From contig JACPHY010000002.1 in assembly GCA_016188355.1 (NCBI GenBank), forward strand, positions 596 through 64,595: 64,000 nt of DNA, read 5' to 3'. The position numbers and the translations under genes are program-made. This DNA is from Candidatus Uhrbacteria bacterium (GTDB lineage: Bacteria > Patescibacteriota > Patescibacteriia > JACPHY01). Position 1 is the first letter of the stretch. Each line of letters opens with the position of its first letter. Below are positions 1-24,260 of the stretch, one piece after another. The notes below the pieces were generated by a model. That model made no database searches. It saw only the letters and a list, made by a program, of their open reading frames with translations, and was not told the origin of the DNA.

Positions 1-42
1 CGCCACTACGTCTCCACAGCCAACAATCCCCCTTCCGTAACC

Positions 43-157: not shown

Positions 158-1156
158 TCATCTTCCCACCGCCTTTGCCAATGCAATCCATTGTGCGAGG
201 GTGAGGGTTTCCGGACGTGCAGTCGGATCAATCCCCACACCCACGCAGATCGCATCCGCTTCCGAGCGGTCGCAAGCGGCAATGGTCCGTATGGAGGTGC
301 CGATCTGCTTCCGTCGTCCCGCAAACGCCATGTGGACAAATCGAAGAAACTGATCCCGGGAGAGCGGCTGCAGGAGGTCGGCCAACGCCTCGGGAGATCG
401 TATCTCGGTGAACTGCACGACCGCGCCCTCCACCTTCGGGGGTGGCCAAAAGTGCGACGCCGGCACCCGCACCACGCGGCGCGCGGTAGCATGGAGTTGC
501 GTGAGTACGGTCAAAAATCCCACCGATCCGTCAGCGCCCACCAAACGATCCACCACCTCTTTCTGGAGCAGGAGCACGATGCGTTCCGGCGGAGGGATCG
601 CGCCTGCCGCGATCTGATCGAACAGCACCCGCAAAAAATCACTGGTGATCTGATACGGAAGATTCGCGGCCAGTTTCCAGGAATGCTGGGACGATGGACT
701 CCCGAGGCGGCCATGTAAGGCCGCTACTACGTCCGAAGGATATGTTGCTAGACGTAGAGGCGGGGCTACGTCCCCGCCCTCCGGGGCGATGCCACCGTGC
801 ACCGATTCGAGCGGCCAGAGAGAACCGCGTTCACGTCCGGAGAGTACCCGCAACGCATCACCTGCTACAATTTCCACCCACCCAAACGGAGCAACGATTT
901 CCTGGAGCACCGGAATCACCTGGCGATCCATCTCAATGGCAATGAGACGACCGACGCGAGGAGCAAGCGCAGTGGTGAGCACCCCAAACCCTGGACCCAC
1001 TTCGAGAATGGTATCTGCCGGCTGGGGATCCACTGTCGTCACGATCTCCGCTAGTGTGCCCGCATGAATCAAAAAATGCTGCCCCAACGACCGCTCGGGC
1101 TTTTTCCCCGCGCGGATGCAGAGTGCTTTGAGGACGGGAGGGGAAAGGAGATTCAT
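158..1156 (-). CDS. rsmA: 16S rRNA (adenine-N6)-dimethyltransferase RsmA/KsgA, carrying a ~35-aa in-frame insertion encoded by a REP doublet
   Basis: Motifs SLGQHFL, LEVGPGFGVLT (SAM binding) and ANLPYQITS in the ORF translation; start taken at the internal Met (MNLLSPPVL...), since the upstream ORF extension runs into REP sequence. Confidence 0.8.
   Translation of the reverse strand: MNLLSPPVLKALCIRAGKKPERSLGQHFLIHAGTLAEIVTTVDPQPADTILEVGPGFGVLTTALAPRVGRLIAIEMDRQVIPVLQEIVAPFGWVEIVAGDALRVLSGRERGSLWPLESVHGGIAPEGGDVAPPLRLATYPSDVVAALHGRLGSPSSQHSWKLAANLPYQITSDFLRVLFDQIAAGAIPPPERIVLLLQKEVVDRLVGADGSVGFLTVLTQLHATARRVVRVPASHFWPPPKVEGAVVQFTEIRSPEALADLLQPLSRDQFLRFVHMAFAGRRKQIGTSIRTIAACDRSEADAICVGVGIDPTARPETLTLAQWIALAKAVGR
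721..790. repeat. REP-like GC-rich hairpin doublet (BIME-like) embedded in-frame within ksgA
   Basis: Sequence gaggcggggctacgtccccgcc plus ccgctactacgtccgaagg matches the intergenic REP family at 1211-1264, 1987-2045 and 5318-5375; the minus-frame translation gives IAPEGGDVAPPLRLATYPSDVVA, which is exactly the KsgA insertion. Confidence 0.6.
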
Positions 1157-1915: not shown

Positions 1916-1949
1916 ATAACGTCGTCGCTACCTCTCCTGTACCCCGTGG

Positions 1950-2045
1950 CGTCCACGTAGGGCCGCCGCTACGCCCGGAGATCGATACACCGCCTACACC
2001 ACCGAGGCGGGGACGTAGCCCCGCCACTACGTTCGGAGCAATCAC
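1950..2045. repeat. REP cluster between the RAYT start and the prfB stop
   Basis: cgtccacgtagggccgccgctacgcccgg and acaccgcctacaccaccgaggcggggacgtagccccgccactacgttcgg match the REP-B family. Confidence 0.65.
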
Positions 2046-3197: not shown

Positions 3198-4472
3198 TCA
3201 TTCGGTCGGAAATTCCCCAAGCTGCACCGTCAGTTTCCGTTCTTTGCCGGCACGAAGGATGGTGAGGGTCACGCGATCTCCTGGCTTCTGTTTCGCGATC
3301 AGCCGTGCGAGGGGGCGGGATTCCGTGATCGGCTCGCCGGCGACCGCAATCACGATGTCGTTCTCCCGGATTCCCGCACGATCGGCTGGGCTACCCGGCA
3401 CGACCGCGATATCCGTTGGCGCATCTCCTCGCACCACGAGCGCACCTGCTTTCACGGGTAGCTTCTGCGCAGTTGCCAATCGATCGGTAATGGCAAGGTA
3501 TCGCACGCCGAGCCAGGGTCGGATTATTTTGCCATCCCGAATCACGCTCTCGACGACCTGTTTTGCAACATTGATGGGAATAGCGAACCCGAGGAGTTGC
3601 CCCTCCTCACTCACGGCGGTATTCACGCCCACGACCTGGCCGTGCAAATTGAGCAGCGGCCCGCCGGAATTACCCGGATTGATCGCGGCGTCCGTTTGAA
3701 TCGCCTCATCGATCACTTCGCTCGACCCTCCCGAATCTCCCGCGATGACCCGACGATTGATGCCGGAGATGACGCCCTTCGTCACCGTATTCCGAAACTC
3801 CGAGAGCGCGTACCCGATCGCAATCACCGTTTCGCCCGTCTGGATGGAATCCGAATCTCCCAGCGCCAACACCGGGAGCGGCCCCTGTTTGGGATCGATA
3901 TCAATCTTGAGCACCGCAAGATCGTTCACCGGATCTTTCGCGAGTACCTTTGCCGAAAATTCCCGATCATCATTGAGAATCACCGCGTATTCGGCGTCCG
4001 TATCACGAACCACGTGTCGATTGGTGAGCACGTACCCATCGGACGTCACGAGGAAACCAGATCCGCCGCCCACCTGTCGCTTGCCTTCCGGAGCACCCGG
4101 AAATTGCGGCATGGGTACCGGCGGCGCAAACGGAATACCAAATCGGAAAAAATCATCAAACTCAAAGGCATTCCCCCGCGGGATATTTTTTAGGTCTTTC
4201 CGCACCACAATACTCACGACCGCAGGCGACGCGCTCCGCACGACCGCAATCGTTGCGGATTCCTCATCCAGTGCAGCGGGCACCGCTGGCGCATCCCGAG
4301 ACACGGCCGGCGCATTCGTCAGACGGTTGAGCGATGGGATCGTCTGCGCGAGACCCGCGAGCTGTCCCGTGGACACCAACACGCCGCCCGCAATACCCGA
4401 TATACCGCCCACCAGTAGACCAATAATCCCCGCCACGATCAGAACTTGTTTATCACGAAAGGAAGTGTCCAT
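3198..4472 (-). CDS. htrA: HtrA/DegP-family periplasmic serine protease with PDZ domain
   Basis: N-terminal TM segment, trypsin-like GNSGGPL active-site Ser motif, C-terminal PDZ-like region. Confidence 0.85.
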   Translation of the reverse strand: MDTSFRDKQVLIVAGIIGLLVGGISGIAGGVLVSTGQLAGLAQTIPSLNRLTNAPAVSRDAPAVPAALDEESATIAVVRSASPAVVSIVVRKDLKNIPRGNAFEFDDFFRFGIPFAPPVPMPQFPGAPEGKRQVGGGSGFLVTSDGYVLTNRHVVRDTDAEYAVILNDDREFSAKVLAKDPVNDLAVLKIDIDPKQGPLPVLALGDSDSIQTGETVIAIGYALSEFRNTVTKGVISGINRRVIAGDSGGSSEVIDEAIQTDAAINPGNSGGPLLNLHGQVVGVNTAVSEEGQLLGFAIPINVAKQVVESVIRDGKIIRPWLGVRYLAITDRLATAQKLPVKAGALVVRGDAPTDIAVVPGSPADRAGIRENDIVIAVAGEPITESRPLARLIAKQKPGDRVTLTILRAGKERKLTVQLGEFPTE

Positions 4473-5317: not shown

Positions 5318-5375
5318 GTACCACCTACACCGCCGAGGCGGGGACGTAGCCCCGCCGCTACGTCCGGAATAATTA
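5318..5375. repeat. REP-B element in the nrdR leader region
   Basis: taccacctacaccgccgaggcggggacgtagccccgccgctacgtccggaataattac matches the REP family. Confidence 0.65.
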
Positions 5376-8232: not shown

Positions 8233-8646
8233 TCATGAAGTACCCACCAGAGCGCCGCCGCTCCACCATTGCGCACCGCGCACCATATACGCCCAGCAAT
8301 ACGGGAGCAGAATCACCCCACCAATCAATGCCGCACCCAGCGAAGCGACCAGCACCGCCGCTGCCATCATGTCCTTGATTTCCCGCACATACCCATGGAG
8401 TCGCGGCTGTACCAAATCCAATAGTCGCTCCACAGCGCTATTTATACATTCTAACACGAGCACCGCGGTTGCGACGAGCGCCAGAACCAAAACTTCGCCC
8501 ACCCGAATCCGAAAGAGCATTGCCAATACACCCACCGCACCCGCTACGCTGAGCTGAATACGAAAATTCTGTTCAGAACGGGCAACCAGAAGCAAGCCAC
8601 GCCAGGCAAATCGGAGACTTTGCAGGAATTGCCGGAGGGAGAGCAC
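8233..8646 (-). CDS. dgkA: Diacylglycerol kinase (DgkA-family small membrane kinase)
   Basis: E.NFRIQ...ECINSAVERLLD pattern typical of prokaryotic DAGK; three hydrophobic helices. Confidence 0.55.
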   Translation of the reverse strand: MLSLRQFLQSLRFAWRGLLLVARSEQNFRIQLSVAGAVGVLAMLFRIRVGEVLVLALVATAVLVLECINSAVERLLDLVQPRLHGYVREIKDMMAAAVLVASLGAALIGGVILLPYCWAYMVRGAQWWSGGALVGTS

Positions 8647-8655
8647 AAGGTTCGC

Positions 8656-9099
8656 TCACGACCGCGATACCTGCTTTCGGATAATCTCCTCCTGTACCCC
8701 AAACATTCGTTCCGCATCCGATGGCGTGGCGTGATCGTATCCCAAGAGATGCAGCATGCCGTGCACGAACACCCGCAGGAGCTCCCGCCGAAACGGCTCC
8801 CCCGCTCGCTCGGCCTGCGCACGAACATGGGAGGGACAGATGAGTATTTCGCCAAAATCCTCCGATCCTTCCCTGGACTCTCCCGGAAAGGCAAGCACGT
8901 CCGTAACCCGGTCTTCGCCGTGATACTGCCGGTTCACCGTACGCATGCGCTGCGGTCCCACAAACGCAACCGAGAGCTCGCCGGACGCCCGCGCCTGTTT
9001 CGTGCTGCGGAGCACGTGCATCACGCATGAGCGCAGCGTGGCCCGTGTCATGGACACGGGCACTGCCCGAGCGATCTCGAGGTGAAGCATACTCGTCAC
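8656..9099 (-). CDS. ybeY: Endoribonuclease YbeY
   Basis: HGMLHLLGYDH metal-binding motif. Confidence 0.85.
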   Translation of the reverse strand: MTSMLHLEIARAVPVSMTRATLRSCVMHVLRSTKQARASGELSVAFVGPQRMRTVNRQYHGEDRVTDVLAFPGESREGSEDFGEILICPSHVRAQAERAGEPFRRELLRVFVHGMLHLLGYDHATPSDAERMFGVQEEIIRKQVSRS

Positions 9100-11067: not shown

Positions 11068-14000
11068 TCACGGGGACGGCGGATACGGAGGGCCGGAGCA
11101 TTGGAATGTGGCGGGCTGGGAGATACGGACGTGACGGACGACGGATCCCGACGCAGTGAACTGCGGCACAAGAATCAGCTCAAGTGGTCGGCTGCTCCCG
11201 AATCGACCCAGCGTATCGGTCGGCGTACGTGTGGAGCTATATCCCGCGGCTCCTGGCACGTTGACTGGCTTGCGCAGCACAATCTGCTGTCGCTCCATGA
11301 GTTTCGGCCGCACCGCATCCGTGGGTGCGATGCCAACGCGCCCCAGCTCCGCACCTCCTGCACCAAGCTCCCGAAGCACCAGGGTCGCGTCCGGTACTCC
11401 CTCCTCAAGGAGCACATCGAAGGTGAGCGTGTCATAGAGGCGCGCCGCAGGGAGTCGGATCGGGAGTTCCGCACCATTCGCGACGGCAGTGCCACGACTT
11501 GGATCAATGCCGGTCGCACCGAAATCCGCGGTGACACGATCGAAGGCGCCGGGACACTGACTCGTGCACGTCAGACTGCAGAGCGGTCCATTCCACGGAC
11601 TCGTCGCGCGATCTGCGGCAGCGATATCACATGCCTCTGGACCATTCGCACCATCCTGTTTGATGCCATCCCCACAGAATCCCCCACGCTTCGTCGCGAC
11701 CGTGCACGTATTGGTCAAACAGTAGTTACAGGTACGTCCGTATGCGCACCGCGCGTTCGGGACACACTGCGCGTCCTGCGCACCAGAACAGGCTGCACGC
11801 CAGTTCCCGACGCCCACATCACACTGTTCCGCCGCGCATCGGCCATTGCGTCCGCACTCCGTGCTCGAACGACACGGCTGTCCCAGTTTCCCCGCGTCCC
11901 CCGCAACGCAGGTGGAAGCGAGCACCGCCCCATCACCGCACACATTGTGCTTGCACTGACTCGTACACGCATCCGCATCACGGTCACACACTCCCCCCGA
12001 ACCGCATTCCGCATGAGAACGACACACCCGTTGCGGATCATTGATACATCGCCCCCTCCCCCCGTCATCACACTGCTCCCCGAAGTCCGCCCGACCCTCA
12101 CGGCCATCTTCCACAACGCCATTACCACATCGCGCGCTCGCCACCTGACACGCACCCCATCCGGCGTTCGGCGCGCCATTCGTTGCGCTCCCATTTGCAT
12201 CAAGCACCTTGCAGGCATTTGGTGTTTGCGGCGCGCCACACGTACGCACCTGCGTCGCCTCAAAGGCCACACGTTCAATCCGAAGGTTGGCATCGTAATA
12301 ATCCCGTATACACCCCCCCGAACCACAGGTAGGCGATGCCGCAGCACATGACTCCTGCGTAGCAAAACGACGCGTCCGATCATTCTGGCACGCCCATGCG
12401 CTACCCCCGTTATTCCAATCATTATCCCAGGTGAGGGTAATTTGGTGTGGGGTGTCCGTAGTGCCGGACGCTACACCACGAAGCACCAGCTCATTATGCT
12501 GCAGTTGCGAGGACGCAAGCGCCCAGATGGTGCCCACCGCATTTCCATCGAGCGCCACGCGGATGCGATGGTACACCCCACGTCCACCACGGGTACCTGT
12601 GGGATTCAAATCGGACAGCACCTGTTCTGGCCGGAGACTCGCCTCCATAACCTCTCGCGACACCGTGCCCGGATCACCTCCGGATGACTCCACATTTTGC
12701 GTCACGAGCAACAACTTCACATCTCCCGCTCCGCCATTTTGCGACCGAATGGTTCCTCGGAGCGTAATAGTTGATGGCGTGGACCCATCACCATAGGATC
12801 GCCACCCACCGGAGGAATTTGCCCATTGAGATCCGGTCCATCCCACCCATTGGAGGTTCCCATTATTCTCCACCACGCATGACCGCGATTCATCGCCATC
12901 GCATTGCTCCTGATTCGCGGTCTGGATCTCACGATCCCCACAATACCCCCCCGTCGCGCGGCAAGGCCGCGGGGCGTCTGCGGCGGTGCAGGCGTATTGG
13001 GACTGCGCAGAGGAAGCGGATGGTGTGGTTGCCCTATTGGCAGGACCATCACACTGCTCGCCATACGCCGCCTGAATAATTTCGTCACCGCAGCGCATGT
13101 ACGTCGCCGGACCGGACATACGCCAGGTGCAGTTCGGCGAACATTCGTATGCCGTGCCCGAGGTGATGCCTGGTGCGGTACCACCAGCAGCAGGCACCCG
13201 ACCACCACGCGGACCCACGTCGCACTGCTCGCCCGCATCCACAATGGCGTTCCCGCATTGCGATGACCATGCGCTCCAATCAGACCATTGACACGTCACG
13301 GAACACGTCCGATGCCGCGACTGACGTCTGCCATCTTCGGTACGCTCCTCCGTTCCCACCTGCCCACGCTCACACGCTTCTCCGGCCTGCTGAATACCAT
13401 CACCACATCGGCCACTTGCGCCGTATGTTGTTCCGTTCGGAGTCGCACAAATACCCCCATCCACCCGTATGCCGGTTCGAAGGGCAGGGACGATGGACGA
13501 CCCCGCAACCACCTCCAGCTGCGAACCGAGTTCGGTCGTACCGTCCGCTAATCGCCGGTACTGATACACATACGAACCCGCAGGACAAGAGTACGTACCC
13601 GCGCGTTCACTCCAACACGTCTGCGGGTCGAATAGACGATCTTCCTCACACCGCCGCTGGCCTTCCGGCTGTGCTGCGCATGCGGCATCGTTCACGCAAT
13701 CCGGACCCACGCCACCACACCGACGGATCGACGTACATCGTCCGCCGAACTGGTTCAACGGATCCGATGGCAACGTACTCCCGAGCTGCGCGCCCAACTC
13801 CTGTTGCCAGGACGGCCAGCGACTCACGGACATGCCAGGAATAAAGGTGCCCGCGTTGAGATCAGGACCAAGCGCCATGCACTGTTCTCCCGCAGGACAA
13901 TCACCATCCGCCGCACAGGATCGCGGGGTGATGGTACATCGGCGCTGGAATCGCTGCACGACTTCACGCAGCTCCACGAGATCCTCCATGCGCTGAACAT

Positions 14001-17000
14001 CACGCATGAGTTTATCCTTTGGCGCGCGGCAACTCCCCTGCGCCGTGCCCACACGACAATCCAAATCCGATGTACAGGAGATCCCCGCACACGTACCCCC
14101 CGCTGTTCCACAATCCAAATCCCGTGCGCATGCCGCACCGCTCGTCGTGCAGCGGCCAAAAATCGCACCTGCGGCCACTATGCCCTGCGGCACACACATG
14201 CGCACATTCTGATCGCTCAAATTGGTCGCGAATCGGATACCCTCCAGAATCTGCTGCAGCACCTCTTGCGTTTCCGCAACTGCGCCATCATTGAACGAGA
14301 GCACCGCCAAATTCGTGAAGACGCTTCCGGCACGTACATTCGGCACGTGCAGATACGTCGATCGACCCGCGCGCACCCCGCGGGATCCATCCACTGTGAT
14401 GGGCGTATTCGCATCCGTGAATCCCTGCTGCTGGAACCAACGATCCGCGCGCACATGTCCTTCATTTTCGTAAAGACGCAAGCCCAAAGCATCCTGCCCC
14501 GAACGGCAGAACTGACCCGGAGGACACGTTCCCGGTACATCCGGCTCACAGCGATCGCCGGATTCCGAACAGTACGACGCACCACGCGGCAGGAAGAAGA
14601 ACTCCTTCCGAAGCTCATCACGTCCATTACCCGACTGCACACCAGCAATCTGCCGCGCGACCACATTCGGCGCGATCGCGGGGAGATCATCCCGGAGCGC
14701 GAGCAGGCACTTGAGCGGTGCCATGCATTCCGCATCGCTCCCGCAGCTCCGCGCATCTACGGGTTCGATCGTACCCGGAGCGCGGCATACCTTCCGAGTC
14801 CCCGCATCGCGGCAGTAAGCAAAAGAAATGTGCTCGTCGGTGAGCGGAGAAGGATCGGCGCCCACACAGGTGAACCCGTTCATGCAATCCGAATTCGCCG
14901 TGCAGACATTCGCGCGCATACTACCACTCACACATTGACCCATCGCCGGATACGGCTGCCAGGTCGCCGCATTCGTGACCGCCGGCCACGGATTCTCGCA
15001 AAGGAACACCCGGAACGGCGCCCGCGCACTGAATGGTCCGGCTGGCGCATTGATCGTATTCACGGTGATGTCGAGCTGCGCGAGCGCGAGGCCCTGTCCA
15101 TTCTTCACTGCCGCGGCAGGATGGAAGAAACAGGACGCGTGCGGACCATCGTTGCAGCGCCCGGGTGATGTAGGATCGATATCCGCGACATCGGAAGCGG
15201 TGGATTGCCATTGATACCGCCATTCATATGAGCCGGCCACCGGCCCGACCAGCTGCAACTTCCCGGATGGCAATCGACCCATCGGGGACACCGAGAACGG
15301 AAAATCCATTCGCTGTCCGACGCGCTGGAAGAGGTAGGATGCAGGCTGCATCTGAAGCGTCTCGATCGTGCAGTAGCGACCACCCACCATGAACGTCCAT
15401 GCCGCCCCCCCAAATCGCACGCCATCCATGGAACGCAACGCGATCGGCTTGCCCGCAGCATCTTCATCTGCCGCCCCAAAGAACCGCACGCGATGGAGAC
15501 GACTCGGAACGAGTCCTTTCGGCGTCTCAAATATAAGCTCACTCACGACACGATCTTCCTCCTGCACCTCACGGAGAATTGGGGTCGCCTCCACGGGACG
15601 CCAGTTCGCATCGGAATCCAACGTGCACACACGACCACTGGGACAGTGCTCCAGTATCGCGCCTCGGTACGTCGATGCGCTGGTGACCGCATCGACGACG
15701 ATACCCACGGACGCCGGATCCATGCGCTCGGTGAATCGCGCGGTGACCACCGCATTGATACAGATATTCGTCGCACCCGGATCCGGCATCTCTGATCCTG
15801 ATACGATGGCCGGACGCGCACGACAGCACCCGGAACGATCCACACCGTTCACGGCTGGGGTCAGACATTGCGTGTCGCGCGAATATCCGCACTGCAACTG
15901 GATGGCCACTCGCCCATCCGCGCCGCGCACGCCTGCAATCAACTCCGTAGATTGCATCCCCTCCGCATCCGCAACCCCACCACCAACTGCCTGCACGATT
16001 TGCGCAGGATCGGGCGGATCGGCAACATTGCCCCCATCGCACTGCTCACCGCCGAAGGGACGACCACCGGAACCATCAAACGCGATTCCATCTCCACAGA
16101 GTGCCGGATGCGGTGCGCCGGAAACCGGATCGCGCCAGGCGATCGATGCGCCCTCGAAGAGACATCGCGCGGAGCAACCATCTCCGCTCACGGGTTGACG
16201 TTCCACGCATGATGCGCCCCCACAATCCCCATCCGATGCGCACGTTCGACCCGCGCGTGATCCCGGTGCACATACTCCCACCGCACCATTATCGCACTGC
16301 TCACCGCGGTCCAGTTGACCATTTCCGCATGTCCCCGGTGGGGTATCGACGATCGACCGGGTTCCTGTAAAAATACAGTGCTCAAAATCACATCCCTGCG
16401 ACACCCATACGGATCGCGGATCATCATGCCAATCACACTCCTCTCCTCCAGCCACCCGACCGCCGCGCCCATCCGCCACGATCCCATCACCACAACGTGC
16501 GAGCACCCCATTCGGCGCGCGCACAGGGTCGTACTGCGGCCGCGTACCTTCATGAAGGCATTGACTGGAGCATCCGTCGCCGTTTTCAGTATTGCCGTCA
16601 TCGCAATCCTCACCATCCCCCAACGGTTCCGCGGGACGACCTGGCGTCACCGGTGTTCCGCAGCGCGATCCTCCCGCGCGCGCCCCTAAACGCAAGCAAC
16701 TCGCGGGGTCACACCATGCAGGCATGGTGTTGTTTTGGAGATCACATTCTTCACCCGCATCAATATCTCCATCTCCACACGTGCCCCCCCGAGCAACGGG
16801 TCGCGCGCCACGCAGCAAACAATTCTCCGGATTACAGGAACTCGGAAATCCGGTCGCCTCCGCCTCGCACTCCTCCCCCAATTCTCGCAGACCATTGCCA
16901 CAAATACCGGTGATCCGCACGGACCCGGTGGGAAGGCACTGCAACGTACACGCAGACGATGCGGCAATCGTCGTTCTCGTGAGCGTTGTTTCCGTTGGTG

Positions 17001-20000
17001 CGCCCGGTGCCGCAAAGGTGCCCGCAGTAGTCACCGTCGTGAACCCGGCAACCGCGATATCACGGATGCTCCATCCCCACGGCAAAGAATCGGCGCGAAG
17101 CGGCTGTCCCTCTGGTGCACATCGATCGGGCGCGCTCGTGGGCACCGCCGTCACCCAGGCGCGTTCCCCGACCACCGAAAAGGTGAGCGCTGCCGGTATT
17201 GTCTCCACCTTCTGCACCTCACAGCGCCCTCCGCGCGTTCGGAAAATCCAGGAGCGCGCATCCAAAGACCCATCACCATCGGAATCAAAATTCAATCCCT
17301 CCAACGGAACGCCCCAGGCACTCGTCACCTCGCTCGTCAGCAGTACGCGATAGGGAGTATTTTCCCCAAGCTCAGGAGGAGAAATGCGCAAATGCGGCTC
17401 TTCGGTCACCCGAGTGCCCGCACAGGGATCGTTCCCGCCGGATTCACGTGCGGGGCATACCTGTACATTTGCCGGTCCCAAGGGAATCTCCGCCGTCAAC
17501 GCATCCCGTCGGCAATTCTCCTGCGCGCACTGATACATGCGCACCTCAAACGCCGCGCTCGCCGCAAGCGGCACGTTCGTCACTGCGGCCACGACGGTAT
17601 TCGTGCAAGCCTCCTGACAGCTCTCCGTGGGAATAACCCGAGTTACCCGAGGTCGCTCGAACCGCACCGCCACATCACTAACACCCGAAACCTCTCGATT
17701 GCCTGCCGCGACGATTGCCTGCACCCGCACCGGCTGCGTCGGGGTCTCCCAATGAGCGCGTGCGGTGATGGTGGTGGGCAGATTTTCACACCGACGGTTC
17801 GTTCCACAGAAATTGGTACGGCAATGCCCCGCTCCGGTATCACAGGTAGCACCCAACGACGCGCACTGAGCATCCTGTACACAAGGAATGACGCCGCACT
17901 CTGATTCCACCGCGCACCAACGACCACTTCCATCCACATCACCCGCTACGTACGATCTCCCTGCCACCGCGGGGGGAGAGGGCGGCTGTACCACCCGCCA
18001 CGCATCTACGCGCTCGAGCGCAAGCGTCGTACAGGTCGTAGGATCATTAACGCCCGCCGCACTAATGTGGACGAGGGATGGCAGGTCCGCCGATTGCGTA
18101 GCAGAGAGCACCTGCTGTGGCGTCGCTCCCGGTTCCACCCGCTGCGTGGCGACTGCCGATTGCGGCGTCATGAGAATCTCCCGCACAGCGCACGGTTCCG
18201 CAGATGCCCGCGTCTGAAATCGGAATCGGTAGTTCCCACCTTCCTGCCCATCTCCATCGCCATCAAGTGCCAACTGCTGCGCTCCCGCGCTCCGCAATGC
18301 GAGTTTCGATGCGGTCGTCGCTCCAATCTGCTCCAGGGTATCGCTGCCATACACCACTACTTCATACGTGGCTCCTGGAGACCATCCACCATTCGGCGGC
18401 GCAACATTCACAATGTTGCCCCGATGATTTGTTCGACCGCCCGCATCACTGACCGTTACTGCACCAGTGGTCGCAAACTCACGAATCACGCACGCATCCC
18501 CCTGACGCACAACTTCAAGATCATCCAAATCCGCGGCATATACTTCGTCCGATCCCTGCTCCGCATCTGGCGCGGGCGCGGTGAGATAGATGCGCACAAA
18601 ACCAGAAGCAACGGCATTCGGGCCGCGATCGAACGTGATCGACGTGGCAAGTTCCTGCCAAGTATTCTCGAGCACGACCTCCCGCGCGGACTGCTGCCAC
18701 CAACCCGCATCCGTCACATTCGGCCCACCTGCGCGACCAATCACGATGCCGACACGCGCATTGGGATTCCGCTGTGCATTCCGACCACGAACCATCACTC
18801 GCGCGGTGTAGGTGGTTCCGCCAGTATCCGTCACGAGCGACGCTGGAGCTTCAATAGCGTACGCAATACGGTCCACCGTCGCATCTCGGGGGAGACCAAC
18901 GGCGACCGGTTGTCGTCGATATGCGACCGAATCGGCGACCGCCGCCGTACGTTTCGTCAATCGCAAAACGCCGGTGCCGCCGTGCGCCGCGGTATCTTCC
19001 GTATTTATGAACGTCGCCTGCACGTGTTGAGGGTCCAGTGCGGTCCAAGCCGTCACATCCGTAGCGCGTTCAAATCCACCCCCAAAATCGGTCGCCACAT
19101 TACGACCGCCCGCACACCGGAACACCTGAATGCCGCGTGCCGCTCCTGCGCTCAAAAACTCCGACGAAGATGTCGGGTCCCCCATGCTCATGCTGAATTG
19201 CACGCGCACATTTGCGTTCGTGCATGCCGAACCCCCCGTTCCCTGCTGATCCCAAGGAGACGGGCTGAATGCACCGCAGGACTCCACTACCCGAGGCACC
19301 CGCGGTACCGCGCCAGTGGCAAAGGTCCATTGGTACGCGCCCACATTCGGCTCGGATTCGCACCGCGTCCCCGACGCCACGCATGTGCCATTGCCGCAGC
19401 AGATTTGTCCGCTGGGACACGCATTCGCCGTGCCACCTGCTCGACAATCACGCACCTCAAATTGCACCGGATTCGAACCGCGGTTCGTGGCCGTAGGCGC
19501 ATCTGGATTCTCCCCAGTCACCCACAACCGGAATGGTCCAGTCTTTGCCAGTATCGGAACGAGAATCCCCTGAATTTTCTGCTCCGTCCATGCGAACTGA
19601 TCTCGATCGGATGCACCTACGATTACTTGATCATGGAACCGCATCGTCCCCGCCGCACTCCCAAACCGTTCACCCACAATCGTCACCGGCGTACGCGCAG
19701 GTCCACGATGCGGCGCAATCGCACAAATACCGGGAGTCGCAGGATCAGTGGTGACGGTGAATGGCACCGCATTCGAAGCAACGTCCGTTCCCCGAGGATG
19801 TACACGAATCTCAAATTGCCCCAACGCGGAAAAATCCGAAGGCGGCGGACTCTGACCAACCGGAGCCCACTCCTCGCGATTCGCAGGGATGCGAATCGTA
19901 ATCTCGTTGGCGCGCCACCAATCTTGACGACACGCATCTGGAAAACGCGGCACGATATCGTACCGCTCCGTGCCTCGCGTGAAGGTAATGCGACCCATCT

Positions 20001-22014
20001 CCGCTCCAAAATGCTCACCGCGAATGGTCACGTACTGTCCGAATCCACCGCGACGAGGAGTGATCTCCTGAATGCGCGGAATGATCGGTTCCGGATCGCG
20101 AGTGAACCGAACGGCATTGGATGTCTTGGTGCCATTCGCCACACGAACCTCCACCAGTCCCTCGGCGATCACCGGGACGCGCACCTGAATCGCCGTGGCG
20201 CTCCATGCCGACGTCTCCGCAGCGAGATCACCAAAATACACGGCGTCCTCTGCTCCCCGCGTCGCACCAAACTGCACACCCGATACCGCAATCACCGCAC
20301 CCAATTGCCCGTGTCCCGGATCCAATGCGCATAGCCCCGGTCGCTGCGTGGTGTTCCTCCGAAAATCCTCAATGGTCGATCCACGCGCATCGTCCGTGCG
20401 ATCACGGAATGCGGGTATATCGGAAGTCACGACCTGTAGTGGACCGTTCGGTGCATTTTGCGGAACCACCACAATCACCTGCGTGTCCGACCATGCGGAG
20501 CTGCAGGACGGCGGCAGTGATGCGGTCACATCATCCGCATCGCCATCTTGCCCGAGGAACACGATACTCCCCGGCACCGTACCAAATCCGCTCCCACGGA
20601 TGGTGAGGTAGTTCCCCGGAGCACCGTTTGGCGCAACGATCAATTCGGTGCCCGCGGGCGCATCTTCTCGCCGCGCAAACGTTTCTCCCGTTGTTCGGCT
20701 CACGAGCGCTTGCGGGGAGACATCGGTAATGAGCGGTCCGTCGTCACAACGGCAGGAGGCGGTATGACACCGGAGTCCTTGCGTGCAGGATCCTGGCTCA
20801 CACTGTTCGGTTGCCGCGTTCGCATCGCATCGCGCACCGATACCTGACGGTCCTGGACCCACCGCACAGGCGTCGGCGAGCAAGCACTGACCCGTCGAAC
20901 AACAGGCCGACTGTGTACACTGCGCGTTCGCGCTGCAGGTAACGGTAAACGGATAACCATTCGAGGACTGCGCGCCGCGCACCACGCGAATCTCGCCACT
21001 CAACGCGCCAGTTGGCACATTTACCGTTATGTTGGTCGCCGACCACGTCACCACCGATGTCGCATCGATGCCCCCGCCAAATTGCACATTTCCTTCCCCT
21101 CGCGTCTCCCCGAAGAGCTTCCCCTCCATCGTCACCACAGTCCCCTCCGGTCCCTCGAGCGGCGTCAAGCAGGCAATTTGTGGACCAAGGATTTCTGTAT
21201 TCACCTGGAAATTCACCGTCCCGGAAGACAGGGCACCACCAGCGGCGGTCACTACCACCCCATATGAACGCCCTGATGGCAACGTCGGAACCTCTACCAC
21301 AATCAAATTATCCGACCAATTCGGCACCCCACTGCAGGCAACCACCGGTGCCACCGTGCCTCCGATACGCACCGCAGATTGTCCGTCCACGAAGGACCCG
21401 AAACGGAACCCACGGACAGTAACGTACGATCCGACCGGACCACTCACCGGGGTCACACTGCACACGTGGGGCGCGGTACCACCGGGATCACGGCATCCCG
21501 CAAGACGATTGCCCTGCGGGGGAAGCGTATTGTCCCCGGGAGGACCCGCGAACATCACTCCTCCGGACGTTCCGGTCGCCTGCTGCAATCTTCCCAAGAC
21601 GAAATGGGCAATGCTGAAGGACATGAGGATGATGGCGAGGCCAATCACCCCATTCGTGATCGTTCGTTTCGCGCGGACCACTTTCTCCTCATTCCCGCTC
21701 GCGGTCATCCAGAGGAAACCGCCGGTGAGCATGATGCCAACCGCAATGATGCCGAGGAAGCCGAGGAAGGCGCGAATGATCTTTGCGATGGTGATGCGGA
21801 TGTCTTGTACGGCAAGACCGGTCGCCGTTCCGTAATCAATGCCAGTATTCACCTGTGCCACAACCGGTGACGCGGCAACGCACCACACCAACACGAGCGC
21901 GACCGGGAACGCCCATCGTCGCACATTGCGCCACGTGAACGCGCGCCGAAGAAGTCGGCGAGCGCGCAATGCAGCGAGGAGATGAAGCACAGTACGCATG
22001 CGAGTCATGATCAT
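11068..22014 (-). CDS. Giant secreted/surface protein (~3650 aa): signal peptide, VirB2/TrbC-pilin-like two-helix N-terminal module, multiple IPT/TIG domains, many Myxococcus-type cysteine-rich repeats (CGDG...GEECD)
   Basis: Single uninterrupted ORF; probable start at ATG 22014 (MIMTRM...), 2 nt after the upstream gene stop; repeated CGDGI/CGNGQ...E(E/Q)CD motifs; VTPVSGPVGSYVTVRGFRFG-type IPT units. Confidence 0.7.
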   Translation of the reverse strand: MIMTRMRTVLHLLAALRARRLLRRAFTWRNVRRWAFPVALVLVWCVAASPVVAQVNTGIDYGTATGLAVQDIRITIAKIIRAFLGFLGIIAVGIMLTGGFLWMTASGNEEKVVRAKRTITNGVIGLAIILMSFSIAHFVLGRLQQATGTSGGVMFAGPPGDNTLPPQGNRLAGCRDPGGTAPHVCSVTPVSGPVGSYVTVRGFRFGSFVDGQSAVRIGGTVAPVVACSGVPNWSDNLIVVEVPTLPSGRSYGVVVTAAGGALSSGTVNFQVNTEILGPQIACLTPLEGPEGTVVTMEGKLFGETRGEGNVQFGGGIDATSVVTWSATNITVNVPTGALSGEIRVVRGAQSSNGYPFTVTCSANAQCTQSACCSTGQCLLADACAVGPGPSGIGARCDANAATEQCEPGSCTQGLRCHTASCRCDDGPLITDVSPQALVSRTTGETFARREDAPAGTELIVAPNGAPGNYLTIRGSGFGTVPGSIVFLGQDGDADDVTASLPPSCSSAWSDTQVIVVVPQNAPNGPLQVVTSDIPAFRDRTDDARGSTIEDFRRNTTQRPGLCALDPGHGQLGAVIAVSGVQFGATRGAEDAVYFGDLAAETSAWSATAIQVRVPVIAEGLVEVRVANGTKTSNAVRFTRDPEPIIPRIQEITPRRGGFGQYVTIRGEHFGAEMGRITFTRGTERYDIVPRFPDACRQDWWRANEITIRIPANREEWAPVGQSPPPSDFSALGQFEIRVHPRGTDVASNAVPFTVTTDPATPGICAIAPHRGPARTPVTIVGERFGSAAGTMRFHDQVIVGASDRDQFAWTEQKIQGILVPILAKTGPFRLWVTGENPDAPTATNRGSNPVQFEVRDCRAGGTANACPSGQICCGNGTCVASGTRCESEPNVGAYQWTFATGAVPRVPRVVESCGAFSPSPWDQQGTGGSACTNANVRVQFSMSMGDPTSSSEFLSAGAARGIQVFRCAGGRNVATDFGGGFERATDVTAWTALDPQHVQATFINTEDTAAHGGTGVLRLTKRTAAVADSVAYRRQPVAVGLPRDATVDRIAYAIEAPASLVTDTGGTTYTARVMVRGRNAQRNPNARVGIVIGRAGGPNVTDAGWWQQSAREVVLENTWQELATSITFDRGPNAVASGFVRIYLTAPAPDAEQGSDEVYAADLDDLEVVRQGDACVIREFATTGAVTVSDAGGRTNHRGNIVNVAPPNGGWSPGATYEVVVYGSDTLEQIGATTASKLALRSAGAQQLALDGDGDGQEGGNYRFRFQTRASAEPCAVREILMTPQSAVATQRVEPGATPQQVLSATQSADLPSLVHISAAGVNDPTTCTTLALERVDAWRVVQPPSPPAVAGRSYVAGDVDGSGRWCAVESECGVIPCVQDAQCASLGATCDTGAGHCRTNFCGTNRRCENLPTTITARAHWETPTQPVRVQAIVAAGNREVSGVSDVAVRFERPRVTRVIPTESCQEACTNTVVAAVTNVPLAASAAFEVRMYQCAQENCRRDALTAEIPLGPANVQVCPARESGGNDPCAGTRVTEEPHLRISPPELGENTPYRVLLTSEVTSAWGVPLEGLNFDSDGDGSLDARSWIFRTRGGRCEVQKVETIPAALTFSVVGERAWVTAVPTSAPDRCAPEGQPLRADSLPWGWSIRDIAVAGFTTVTTAGTFAAPGAPTETTLTRTTIAASSACTLQCLPTGSVRITGICGNGLRELGEECEAEATGFPSSCNPENCLLRGARPVARGGTCGDGDIDAGEECDLQNNTMPAWCDPASCLRLGARAGGSRCGTPVTPGRPAEPLGDGEDCDDGNTENGDGCSSQCLHEGTRPQYDPVRAPNGVLARCGDGIVADGRGGRVAGGEECDWHDDPRSVWVSQGCDFEHCIFTGTRSIVDTPPGTCGNGQLDRGEQCDNGAVGVCAPGSRAGRTCASDGDCGGASCVERQPVSGDGCSARCLFEGASIAWRDPVSGAPHPALCGDGIAFDGSGGRPFGGEQCDGGNVADPPDPAQIVQAVGGGVADAEGMQSTELIAGVRGADGRVAIQLQCGYSRDTQCLTPAVNGVDRSGCCRARPAIVSGSEMPDPGATNICINAVVTARFTERMDPASVGIVVDAVTSASTYRGAILEHCPSGRVCTLDSDANWRPVEATPILREVQEEDRVVSELIFETPKGLVPSRLHRVRFFGAADEDAAGKPIALRSMDGVRFGGAAWTFMVGGRYCTIETLQMQPASYLFQRVGQRMDFPFSVSPMGRLPSGKLQLVGPVAGSYEWRYQWQSTASDVADIDPTSPGRCNDGPHASCFFHPAAAVKNGQGLALAQLDITVNTINAPAGPFSARAPFRVFLCENPWPAVTNAATWQPYPAMGQCVSGSMRANVCTANSDCMNGFTCVGADPSPLTDEHISFAYCRDAGTRKVCRAPGTIEPVDARSCGSDAECMAPLKCLLALRDDLPAIAPNVVARQIAGVQSGNGRDELRKEFFFLPRGASYCSESGDRCEPDVPGTCPPGQFCRSGQDALGLRLYENEGHVRADRWFQQQGFTDANTPITVDGSRGVRAGRSTYLHVPNVRAGSVFTNLAVLSFNDGAVAETQEVLQQILEGIRFATNLSDQNVRMCVPQGIVAAGAIFGRCTTSGAACARDLDCGTAGGTCAGISCTSDLDCRVGTAQGSCRAPKDKLMRDVQRMEDLVELREVVQRFQRRCTITPRSCAADGDCPAGEQCMALGPDLNAGTFIPGMSVSRWPSWQQELGAQLGSTLPSDPLNQFGGRCTSIRRCGGVGPDCVNDAACAAQPEGQRRCEEDRLFDPQTCWSERAGTYSCPAGSYVYQYRRLADGTTELGSQLEVVAGSSIVPALRTGIRVDGGICATPNGTTYGASGRCGDGIQQAGEACERGQVGTEERTEDGRRQSRHRTCSVTCQWSDWSAWSSQCGNAIVDAGEQCDVGPRGGRVPAAGGTAPGITSGTAYECSPNCTWRMSGPATYMRCGDEIIQAAYGEQCDGPANRATTPSASSAQSQYACTAADAPRPCRATGGYCGDREIQTANQEQCDGDESRSCVVENNGNLQWVGWTGSQWANSSGGWRSYGDGSTPSTITLRGTIRSQNGGAGDVKLLLVTQNVESSGGDPGTVSREVMEASLRPEQVLSDLNPTGTRGGRGVYHRIRVALDGNAVGTIWALASSQLQHNELVLRGVASGTTDTPHQITLTWDNDWNNGGSAWACQNDRTRRFATQESCAAASPTCGSGGCIRDYYDANLRIERVAFEATQVRTCGAPQTPNACKVLDANGSATNGAPNAGWGACQVASARCGNGVVEDGREGRADFGEQCDDGGRGRCINDPQRVCRSHAECGSGGVCDRDADACTSQCKHNVCGDGAVLASTCVAGDAGKLGQPCRSSTECGRNGRCAAEQCDVGVGNWRAACSGAQDAQCVPNARCAYGRTCNYCLTNTCTVATKRGGFCGDGIKQDGANGPEACDIAAADRATSPWNGPLCSLTCTSQCPGAFDRVTADFGATGIDPSRGTAVANGAELPIRLPAARLYDTLTFDVLLEEGVPDATLVLRELGAGGAELGRVGIAPTDAVRPKLMERQQIVLRKPVNVPGAAGYSSTRTPTDTLGRFGSSRPLELILVPQFTASGSVVRHVRISQPATFQCSGPPYPPSP

Positions 22015-22016
22015 CG

Positions 22017-24260
22017 TTACGGAATGGGTGCGCAGTTCGTTATTGCACCCACGCACCGCTCGCCACCCCGTACCCCACGTGGTCCACGGGGATTCTCCGC
22101 GACGGTAAAGAAGCAATTCTGGTAGAGGTCGCGCGCATTCGATCCCGCACGTACGCGGTACTCCGGAATATCGAGACCCGACTGCTGCTCCCGGAGATCC
22201 GCATGGCGGATCACCGCACGGGTCGCATCAGTCACATCATCCACATCGCGCGTCGTATCCTCGTGCTGCATATCCGATGTATGCCAGAGGCACCCGCGTC
22301 CCGTAGCAGGATCACATCCATTCCCTCCTCCGGTCATTTCCTCCAGATGCAATTCACTCGCGAGATTCCCGCTCATGAGCTTCGAGAAGAGCACCTCCAC
22401 CGGTGCAAATGCAGATACTTCATCCACCAGCTGTAGCGAAGCGCCGGAATCGGCCTGATCGTACACCCGACGGGATCGATCTGAGCGATTGAAATGGACC
22501 ACCTGGACGATCTCGGGAGCGGTGAGGTCCAGCCGATCGTTGGTGAAGAATGTCCACTGCGCACTATCCGAGGTAGATTGATTCACCGCAGCCGAACCCT
22601 TGATTGTAAAACAGGGCGATGTCGACGGGCACATCGGCGCTCCCGGACCCGTGGCTTTGGTGTCCATGTTCCCATCGAGTGAATTGCCTGCCGCGTCCAT
22701 GACTCCGGAGAAGGGCAATCCCGCAGGACCTCCCGCATCCAATCGCGCCGCCTCAATCAGCGCACGCAATTCCGCGTTCTTCGGAAGGCAATACACCGTT
22801 CCCCCACACGAATTCTCTCCGCATGCCGCATCGGTCGTGAATTCTACGGTTTTATATTGATTGCTGATCGTAAACGTACCCGGTACCCGCCGTCCCTGCT
22901 CCGTCACCGCGAGATAGCGAAATCCACGTAATGCATCGGGTGATCCTGTGGGGCCGATATCTGCAGCGGTGACGACACCCGAGGTCACGGTCGGATCCAT
23001 AGCCTCATCGAAATTCACCTGCACCACCACATTGATGGGCTGGTCGGGCACTCCGACAACATCGCCCGATACATCGCGCCCTCCATCAGGAAATGGCACC
23101 ACGCTCTGCACCTGCGGAGACCTATCATCCGTATGGATGGTCACCGTGAAATCCCAAGTGTACCCATCGCGGAACGCGCCAGTGAACATGTCTTCCGGGG
23201 TGCCGTCTCCCCGTCGCGTCGTCTTCTTGATGACATTGGTGAGCCGCACCACATAGGCGGTGGGCTGCGACGCATTCCCCAGCAGCTGTCGCTCTGCTGC
23301 TCCCGTTTGGCTATTCGTACGAACCCGCAGCACATCGCCCACCACCTCCGTGGCGACCGGCGTCAACACAATGGTTCGCCCATCCGGGGACATCGCTACA
23401 CCGACGGGCACCAAATTTGCCGCAGCGGCAGTGAACTCTGCCAATCGCGACTCCCGTGCCTGCGGAGTGAGCTTCGTGGGGTCCACATTGGCGCCCACCG
23501 GGGACACCTGAATCGCCTCCGGAAGCGCAAGATCGCGATAATTATCAAACTGCCGCACATCATCGCCGGATGTGCCGAGCGAATCCGGATTTCCCGGACT
23601 CTGATACGTATTCGCGATAAAGGTCGCGGGATCCACTGGCGATCGAAAGGTCACAAAAATACGCACATTGCGCGGCGCATCCCCCTGTCCGCGCGCGGGG
23701 TAATGACTCTCAATCGGCCCCGCACCCAATGCACCGGATAGCGCTACGGAATCTCCAAATCCTCCGGCTGTTCGTACACCTCCTCCCCCACCCGCTGCCT
23801 CCTGCAATCTCCCCAAGACGAAATGGGCGATACTGAAGGACATGAGGATGATGGCGAGGCCAATCACCCCGTTCATGATCGTTCGTTTCGCGCGGACCAC
23901 CTTCTCCTCATTCCCTCCAGCGGTCATCCAGAGGAATCCACCCGTGAGCGTGATGCCAATCGCAATCACCCCGAGGAAGCCGAGGAAGGCGCGAATGATC
24001 TTTGCAATCGTGACCCGGATGTCTTGCGTGGCGAGGCCGGTGGCGGAGCCGAAATTCAGTCCTTCCTGCACCGTCGATCCGGCATCTGCCGCCCAAACAC
24101 CCACCGGAATCCACACCACAACCGCCATGCCTACCGCGCACGCCAGCGCCAGTCCCGAGCGAGGAACGGCAAACAACCGCCGGGACCATACGGCCGCCCG
24201 CGATCGCCAACCGACTACCCCAGAAGAAGCGTGCGATGTGCCGAACTGCAAAACAGGCAT
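22017..24260 (-). CDS. Large (747-aa) secreted protein paralog sharing the same N-terminal signal peptide plus two-helix module as the giant protein; translationally coupled to it
   Basis: Residues ~74-155 are ~90% identical to residues ~97-180 of the giant protein; stop TAA 22019-22017 followed by the giant gene ATG. Confidence 0.65.
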   Translation of the reverse strand: MPVLQFGTSHASSGVVGWRSRAAVWSRRLFAVPRSGLALACAVGMAVVVWIPVGVWAADAGSTVQEGLNFGSATGLATQDIRVTIAKIIRAFLGFLGVIAIGITLTGGFLWMTAGGNEEKVVRAKRTIMNGVIGLAIILMSFSIAHFVLGRLQEAAGGGGGVRTAGGFGDSVALSGALGAGPIESHYPARGQGDAPRNVRIFVTFRSPVDPATFIANTYQSPGNPDSLGTSGDDVRQFDNYRDLALPEAIQVSPVGANVDPTKLTPQARESRLAEFTAAAANLVPVGVAMSPDGRTIVLTPVATEVVGDVLRVRTNSQTGAAERQLLGNASQPTAYVVRLTNVIKKTTRRGDGTPEDMFTGAFRDGYTWDFTVTIHTDDRSPQVQSVVPFPDGGRDVSGDVVGVPDQPINVVVQVNFDEAMDPTVTSGVVTAADIGPTGSPDALRGFRYLAVTEQGRRVPGTFTISNQYKTVEFTTDAACGENSCGGTVYCLPKNAELRALIEAARLDAGGPAGLPFSGVMDAAGNSLDGNMDTKATGPGAPMCPSTSPCFTIKGSAAVNQSTSDSAQWTFFTNDRLDLTAPEIVQVVHFNRSDRSRRVYDQADSGASLQLVDEVSAFAPVEVLFSKLMSGNLASELHLEEMTGGGNGCDPATGRGCLWHTSDMQHEDTTRDVDDVTDATRAVIRHADLREQQSGLDIPEYRVRAGSNARDLYQNCFFTVAENPRGPRGVRGGERCVGAITNCAPIP

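Follow-up and report, generated by a model that had tools for sequence, protein, structure and literature searches.

Repetitive extragenic palindromes (REPs) paired in inverted orientation, the REPINs (REP doublets forming hairpins), are described as extragenic, abundant elements that are replicated as a unit, and the REP-associated tyrosine transposases (RAYTs) are usually seen as immobile single-copy genes. Intragenic REPs marked by a GTAG box (GTAG-REPs) are known in several bacteria, where more than half of them occur as dimers or groups and encode 20-30 aa within their host genes (Di Nocera 2013, BMC Genomics 14:522; PMC3733652), and in vitro the GTAG box is where RAYTs bind and cut REP DNA (PMC3733652). 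Rickettsia palindromic elements (RPEs) lying in frame in coding genes constitute the classic case of such selfish DNA (PMC10969869). Here we analyze a stretch of 64 kb from Candidatus Uhrbacteria bacterium (assembly GCA_016188355.1, contig JACPHY010000002.1, positions 596 to 64,595; hereafter the window), a member of the Candidate Phyla Radiation (CPR; Patescibacteria), in which a pair of inverted REP units lies in frame within ksgA (rsmA), the gene for the rRNA methyltransferase KsgA. We show that the inserted segment belongs to the REP family of this locus, that it is absent from the closest relative, that the gene and its motifs are intact, that a RAYT gene lies adjacent to it, and that the loop bearing the insert has been expanded recurrently in the clade. 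As the best explanation of the whole, we consider it likely that a REP dimer from the local REP population was copied into ksgA and is tolerated there as a near-neutral passenger, rather than having been domesticated.

A REP doublet read in frame within ksgA

As delineated by repeat analysis, the REP unit of the window is about 36 nt long (CCGAGGCGGGGACGTAGCCCCGCCACTACGTCCGGA) and comprises a 7-bp GC stem (GGCGGGG/CCCCGCC), a 6-nt loop, and a GTAG box (CTACGTC / GACGTAG) beside the stem; it thus has the build of the GTAG-REPs, which are imperfect palindromes of 20-40 nt (Di Nocera 2013). Almost every copy, the two ksgA units among them, has the box (GACGTAG, or CTACGTC in the opposite direction) bordering the stem; the copy at 1944-1979 has the degenerate form CTACGCC. 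The core GGCGGGG-N6-CCCCGCC is encountered six times in the window (759, 1178, 1228, 1399, 2006, and 5337), as against none expected by shuffling, and one of these copies (759-778) falls within ksgA. We ran an nhmmer profile, trained on only the seven intergenic copies to avoid circularity, on the window and on the ksgA locus of the closest relative (L001, assembly GCA_016206015.1). It recovered both ksgA units (Table 1). Chance similarity of these units to the REPs was also considered and is ruled out by the E-values. Nine full copies and one cut copy are thus present, all in the first 5.4 kb of the 64 kb, and seven of the full ones are intergenic; the remaining 58 kb yielded no further nhmmer match. 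The locus of the relative has three copies. A window-wide scan for short-range inverted repeats found no REP or REP-like element in another gene, with the location of nine hairpins relative to open reading frames (ORFs) left unchecked.

Beyond these two loci the family is sparse. Scans with the REP pattern returned three single-copy matches from the GTDB representative genomes, a collection that does not include the source genome, in records named Ratteibacteria and Anaerolineae bacterium, and five single matches from JGI metagenomes, among which no additional contig of this organism appeared. The REP core with its GTAG box (GGGCGGGGAYGTRRCCCCGCCCCTACG) is seen as single copies on contigs L002, L003, L004, and L008-L012. 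Some of the matches from the genome collection and the metagenomes agree fully in their flanks over the short stretches displayed, and these presumably come from the same organisms.

The two ksgA units are inverted with respect to each other in a REPIN-like layout, and the REP-homologous span extends over 702-786. Unit B is identical at 27 of 28 positions (96%) to the intergenic copies at 1228, 2006, and 5337. In the stem of unit A, a GG to CC change is compensated on the opposite arm, such that the doubly changed stem still pairs; this variant recurs elsewhere (1944-1979 in the window, 3716-3747 in L001, and 6127-6155 in L009), usually beside a canonical unit. Contig L009 has a doublet made of a GGCC-stem variant and a GGGG-stem unit, as in ksgA. 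A single doublet colinear with that of ksgA was found, at the RAYT 3' end (1318-1440). On the minus strand it reads GGDVTPPLRL...PNVVAGPRPRL, against GGDVAPPLRL...PSDVVAALHGRL in the ksgA insert, and it differs in its 25-nt spacer and in unit subtype. Read in the ksgA frame, the element yields the stop-free peptide GIAPEGGDVAPPLRLATYPSDVVAA (KsgA residues 122-146, nt 793-719). At the RNA level, a symmetric 108-nt core (692-799, HGG...SPS) has a predicted fold of -55.7 kcal/mol (z = -3.7), in which two local hairpins with a central and an outer stem are favored over one long hairpin, the central stem being formed by the pairing of the two GTAG tails.

The comparison with the closest relative reveals the site without the insert. 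Its KsgA (P0002, 290 aa) is 80% identical to the window protein over the aligned columns and 42 aa (126 nt) shorter, and the whole gap sits between GDALRVL and WKLAANLPY. Approximately 85 of the 126 extra nucleotides are REP-homologous. In the relative, members of the same REP family are located in the prfB-ksgA spacer and downstream of ksgA, with none inside the gene, and no RAYT gene lies between prfB and ksgA. The converse origin, with the REPs arising from an ancestral loop of KsgA, was considered and is ruled out by this relative, which lacks the insert and yet has the REPs. In a phmmer comparison with B. subtilis KsgA, the alignment breaks at query residues 103/162, the counterparts of residues 105/124 in the solved protein. 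Among the homologs that we found, the insert is unique to this genome.

Apart from the insert, KsgA displays the features expected of the family. The protein matches, at 100% identity, an NCBI protein that a Candidatus Uhrbacteria bacterium encodes on an 89-kb contig, and scores 186 bits against NCBIfam TIGR00755 (cutoff 171), in a match of two stretches divided by the insert. All 17 columns that are invariant across 115 homologs are retained, among them E52, G54, G56, G58, E75, P167, and Y168, as is the nearly invariant N165; thereby, the GxGxG of motif I, the glutamate of motif II, and the proline and tyrosine of NLPY are kept, with GDAL at residues 99-102. An AlphaFold2 model computed from the 115-sequence alignment has a mean predicted local distance difference test score (pLDDT) of 89.4 and a predicted TM-score (pTM) of 0.87. 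Foldseek searches of the PDB place KsgA structures from crystals and cryo-EM, ribosome-bound ones among them, at the top (3tqs, 6ift, 1qyr, and 7o5h; target-normalized TM-scores of 0.84-0.87). The only stretch of the model with pLDDT below 50 (values 35-46) comprises residues 110-136, inside the insert, and the segment that the insert encodes is hence predicted to be disordered. The insert occupies the connection between beta3 and beta4 of the Rossmann domain, between motif III (GDAL) and motif IV (NLPY). In an excerpt of PMC8216452, the contacts of E. coli KsgA with the rRNA of the 30S subunit are given as Arg147, Lys155, Arg159, Arg221, Arg222, and Arg248; all of these come after motif IV, and the insert precedes it. 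From the topology of class I methyltransferases, we infer that the insert lies away from the active site. The enzyme probably still works.

These results bear out the first-pass annotation in its two central claims, namely that a REP-family sequence lies inside ksgA, as recovered by a profile built from intergenic copies alone, and that it is translated in frame without a stop. In its interval (721-790), the half of unit A that forms the hairpin is missing, and although the REP does account for most of the extra loop between DAL and NLPY, as had been proposed, the extra length is 42 aa rather than the ~35 aa given. The alignment with orthologs reveals an insertion as anticipated, the closest relative lacking it and bearing the REP family only nearby, and the ksgA ORF is intact.

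Table 1. Location of ksgA, its insert, and the neighboring REP and protein-coding features in the window
Feature	Positions	Strand	Basis
ksgA/rsmA, 332 aa, intact ORF	158-1156	-	Pfam RrnaAD (PF00398) 4.8e-40, 137.8 bits vs cutoff 24
Approximate extra 126 nt (42 aa) relative to the closest relative; borders uncertain	686-811	-	protein and DNA alignments with P0002/L001
REP unit A in ksgA, variant stem GGCGGCC/GGCCGCT, GTAG box inward, coding strand ..SDVVAALHGRLG	702-737	+	nhmmer E = 7.8e-7
Spacer between REP tails, encodes ..ATYP..	738-745 (13 nt, 738-750, between GTAG-box ends)		
REP unit B in ksgA, canonical stem GGCGGGG-ACGTAG-CCCCGCC then TCTACGTC, coding strand PEGGDVAPPLRL	746-786	-	nhmmer match 746-778 (-), E = 8.3e-9
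RAYT (IS200-like Y1), 169 aa	1406-1915	-	Pfam Y1_Tnp 3.9e-11
REP pair at the RAYT 3' end, tail-to-tail like the ksgA insert	1330-1426 (1330-1369, 1387-1426)	+, -	repeat analysis and nhmmer
Intergenic REP pair in the prfB-ksgA spacer considered ancestral, just upstream of the ksgA start codon	1166-1263 (1166-1205, 1224-1263)	-, +	repeat analysis and nhmmer
Two tandem REP units, flanked by the RAYT gene and the stop codon of prfB	1944-2041	+	repeat analysis and nhmmer
Farthest REP copy in the window, intergenic	5333-5372	+	core scan, repeat analysis, nhmmer
REP copy tail cut by the window start, cgccactacgtc	1-12	+	read directly; nhmmer match weak, partial
prfB ORF, listed from a TTG codon, 364 aa	2042-3136	-	

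Route of the insertion and fate of the host gene

The RAYT gene is located 250 nt upstream of the ksgA start codon with REPs on both of its sides (1330-1426 and 1944-2041). Its product scores 99.2 bits against the NCBIfam equivalog NF047646 (cutoff 80), and its sole relative in the PDB is the E. coli TnpA_REP (4ER8, E = 4e-7), with which its MPDHAH (H-x-H) and RYIWMNPV (tyrosine region) motifs align. It is present as a single copy within the window and is absent from the related loci; a search of the window ruled out a second copy of either the RAYT gene or ksgA. The RAYT is presumably the mobilizer of the REPs, and since RAYTs bind and cleave single-stranded REP DNA at the GTAG box (PMC3733652), it may well have moved the ksgA doublet. 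We posit that a tail-to-tail GTAG-REP dimer from the REP population around the neighboring RAYT was copied into ksgA, most likely through single-strand cutting and copying mediated by this RAYT, and that it would have landed in the connection between beta3 (motif III) and beta4 (motif IV) with a length that preserves the frame. The doublet is without stops in four of the six frames, two of the three on each strand, the closed frame being the one that reads the TAG of the GTAG box; therefore, a frame-preserving insertion of this GC-rich palindrome would usually be read through and leave the gene open, and an open frame is what a tolerated insertion is expected to show. In the protein, the element would now make up some 36-42 aa of a flexible loop at the surface, a passenger that is tolerated and probably near-neutral. 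Selection would have kept ksgA with this insert only inasmuch as the loop accepts almost any insert, as suggested by the 37-80-aa loops of unrelated sequence in its relatives.

The RAYT cassette itself is bracketed by a segment of about 117 nt that is present in two direct copies (1210-1329 and 1988-2104) and is made up of the final 61 nt of prfB (98% identical), the prfB stop codon, and a REP. The window region 1150-1329 is colinear with the complete, RAYT-less prfB-ksgA spacer of the relative, as is the region of the REP pair at 1166-1263. The arrangement looks as though a whole REPtron had recently been inserted or duplicated; flanking 117-nt direct copies of this kind are, to our knowledge, not a described feature of REPtrons.

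Several observations weigh against this account of the insertion or limit its detail. The arms of the ksgA doublet are 71% complementary over 28 nt and their subtypes differ, and no second identical doublet is present in the sequence examined, so that movement as a single REPIN unit lacks support. No target-site signature was identified at the ksgA insertion. The REP family is small and local, with its nine full copies and one cut copy confined to 5.4 kb and few single copies elsewhere. About 40 of the 126 extra nucleotides lack REP homology, and the flanks can be aligned with those of P0002 about equally well in two ways, either as one 126-nt insert or as the symmetric 108-nt element plus a separate indel of 5-6 codons. 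With a single close relative at a moderate distance (80% amino acid identity), it is uncertain where exactly the insertion begins and ends and how old it is.

Some of these observations speak for a non-transpositional origin, in which template switching or short-homology recombination with the REPs 450 nt away, and not the RAYT, placed the doublet in ksgA. Unit B and the copy at 1228-1255 do form inverted repeats 449 nt apart, and the doublet, besides lacking a target-site signature, matches no other doublet exactly. Set against this is the adjacent RAYT, which from its HUH and tyrosine motifs appears intact, together with the cleavage of REP DNA at the GTAG box by such enzymes in vitro (PMC3733652). 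As far as the sequence goes, transposition by the RAYT and recombination fit alike and cannot be told apart; all told, we regard the latter as unlikely, albeit deserving of serious consideration.

A further question is whether the insertion has crippled KsgA, leaving either an early pseudogene or an enzyme that binds the 30S subunit without methylating it. Such an outcome need not be lethal: in an excerpt of PMC8216452, E. coli without KsgA is described as viable, cold-sensitive, and kasugamycin-resistant. Moreover, a disordered loop of 42 aa beside motif III, which binds S-adenosylmethionine, could disturb the fold, and the insertion looks recent. Nevertheless, there is neither a frameshift nor a stop, the invariant residues are all kept, and the core is modeled confidently; many relatives have even longer inserts at this site in otherwise conserved genes, which argues for a permissive site. 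Hence, we deem the loss of KsgA activity improbable.

Conversely, the REP segment might have been co-opted, either in the protein, where it might for instance newly contact a partner or the ribosome of this CPR bacterium, or in the ksgA mRNA through a regulatory hairpin. The preserved frame, the intact gene, and the strong predicted fold of the mRNA segment would all accord with this, and the expansion of the loop in most relatives could mean that a long loop plays a part peculiar to the lineage. However, the insert is unique to this genome, with the nearest relative doing without it; the inserts of the other relatives are unrelated in sequence, which argues that no shared function is encoded; and unit B remains so close to the intergenic copies that there has been little time for adaptation. 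Given also that the segment is predicted to be disordered and that its stop-free reading is expected in most frames, co-option appears quite improbable. Thus, of the terms under which the first-pass annotation had presented the element, as an unusual REP domesticated within an essential enzyme, none is upheld. We find no evidence of a gained function, the viability of E. coli strains without KsgA, in the same excerpt, speaks against essentiality (PMC8216452), and both intragenic GTAG-REP dimers (PMC3733652) and in-frame RPEs (PMC10969869) have already been documented. Finally, a mis-joined contig or the collapse of intergenic REP reads into ksgA, for which one might cite the origin of the sequence as a metagenome-assembled genome and the notoriety of repeats as sites of mis-assembly, is barely credible when the flanks together make up a single ksgA, its halves correctly ordered and sharing one frame, and the ksgA units differ from every other copy.

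Expanded loops and other palindromes in the Uhrbacteria clade

Measured as the distance from motif III (GDAL) to motif IV (NLPY), the loop that houses the insert has a median length of 17 aa and a maximum of 41 aa in 95 more distant KsgA proteins. In the Uhrbacteria-like clade, only five of the 20 proteins have short loops (17-22 aa) and the other 15 have expanded ones (37-80 aa), the sequences of which are mostly not homologous to each other. The beta3-beta4 loop of KsgA is thus an insertion hot spot in this clade. We inspected the DNA of six ksgA genes with expanded loops (L005, L007, L013, L014, L015, and L016). In four of them (L005, L013, L015, and L016), the longest inverted repeat reported for ksgA is located in the loop; in L007, the loop has shorter inverted pairs and the longest pair lies partly outside it; and in L014, the repeat finder reports none, with a degenerate GTCATTGCGAG...CTCGCGATGAC pair discernible in the loop by eye only. 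The uninterrupted ksgA of L001 has no inverted repeat in its loop. Only two of the six loop elements (those of L005 and L014) are also shown to be dispersed repeats.

The most extensive case is L005. Its loop insert is a near-perfect palindrome of 96 nt (TGTCATTGCGAG...CTCGCAATGACA, fold z = -8.9), and its ksgA (P0011) has three in-frame palindromes in all (8248-8296, 8419-8514, and 8939-9033). Two of these are copies of the 96-nt element, 94% identical in different protein contexts, the second copy lying in frame in the C-terminal domain; the third palindrome is different. At least seven full or partial copies of the 96-nt element are present on the 17-kb L005 locus, and the element is also common to the L014 insert. 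The ybeY gene of L005 likewise has in-frame palindromes (21-131, 231-320, and 508-610), which comprise further copies of the 96-nt element and another palindrome, and one of which provides the end of the coding sequence, stop codon included; in the Pfam YbeY match of its product, 126 residues are spread over 100 profile positions. The window, too, has a palindrome of the same class as the 96-nt element, unrelated to the REPs, just 3' of the ksgA stop codon (42-132: GTGTCATTTCGAGCGAAGCGAGAAATCTCACCC ... GGGTGAGATTTCTCG ... CTCGAAATGACAC). This class is also found 3' of ksgA in L001 (about 3615-3715) and in frame in other Uhrbacteria ksgA genes.

The expanded loops of 15 of the 20 clade members, the inverted repeats in the loops of the loci that we read, and the single genome whose ksgA has three palindromes and whose ybeY has up to three lead us to a broader proposal, namely that the ksgA insertion is one case of a lineage-wide process, in Uhrbacteria and perhaps in the wider CPR, whereby several families of mobile palindromes, unrelated to one another, repeatedly become fixed in frame in housekeeping proteins, at loops that permit it. 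We offer this tentatively and with some doubt. No less tentative is the roster of the families that would take part, which might include the REPs with their RAYT, the widespread GTCATTGCGAG...CTCGCAATGAC element of about 96 nt, and others. We found no paper describing such lineage-wide in-frame fixation of palindromes in Uhrbacteria or CPR. If true, the process would represent a counterpart of the RPEs in a second lineage with reduced genomes and a source of the odd insertions in CPR proteins. Even short of this, the different palindromes in one KsgA loop, and in YbeY of one relative, suggest that mobile palindromes contribute to the variation in protein length across CPR. This has a bearing on annotation, on alignment-based phylogeny of CPR marker genes, and on how weak selection shapes proteins in tiny genomes.

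As for the remainder of the neighborhood, the prfB ORF of the window compares with called genes of 349 and 343 aa in relatives. The minus strand of the window has at 11068-22116 a very long ORF (3682 aa), and giant genes are also found two genes downstream of ksgA in L001 and L005. Rfam recovered no family anywhere in the 64-kb window, and no tRNAs were found there.

Comparison with described palindrome systems

The E. coli TnpA_REP and its REPtron (PDB 4ER8; PMC3479197, in excerpt) share with the locus studied here the aligned H-x-H and YI..NPV tyrosine regions of the transposase and the placement of the GTAG box beside the REP stem. The sequence relationship is distant, however, and the RAYT cassette of the window is set between the two copies of the 117-nt segment. 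The REPIN-RAYT system, as presented in an excerpt of Bertels & Rainey (2011, PLoS Genet 7:e1002132; PMC3116915), offers a parallel in the two inverted REPs with a short spacer and in the REP-flanked RAYT, which here is single-copy within the 64 kb. In contrast to REPINs, the ksgA element is intragenic, its halves belong to different subtypes with limited complementarity, and no identical doublet was seen.

The GTAG-REP dimers offer a further parallel. In both cases, short GC-rich stem-loops tagged by GTAG and associated with RAYTs form a dimer of opposite orientation within a gene and are read through (Di Nocera 2013), and the hosts reported for the dimers include RNA-modifying and RNA-binding enzymes, as in the case of ksgA (PMC3733652). 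The differences lie in the CPR host, in the gene being ksgA, in the tiny REP set clustered around the RAYT, and in the loop having been hit repeatedly by other palindromes in related species. With the RPEs (Ogata et al. 2000, Science 290:347; 2002, Genome Res 12:808; reviewed in PMC10969869), the ksgA insert shares the presence of selfish palindromes in frame in housekeeping genes, at sites compatible with the fold, in a reduced genome. This likeness is one of mechanism only, for the host, the length, and the unit structure differ: the RPEs are families of 100-150 bp specific to Rickettsia with no known dedicated transposase, whereas here a pair of ~36-nt REPs lies beside a RAYT.

A literature search on REPIN, RAYT, MITE, or palindromic insertions in Patescibacteria or CPR returned nothing relevant; with no earlier report found, our findings extend the biology of REPs and RAYTs to the CPR. 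The locus also provides a well-controlled example of a selfish palindrome that lengthens a conserved enzyme without breaking it, complete with a relative that has the site empty, a neighboring transposase, and a modeled structure. By analogy with these systems, the ksgA event belongs to a known kind, one that would work like an RPE and be built from RAYT-associated REPs; its new aspects are the CPR host lineage, the proximity of the RAYT, and the way in which unrelated palindromes have repeatedly taken up the same KsgA loop.

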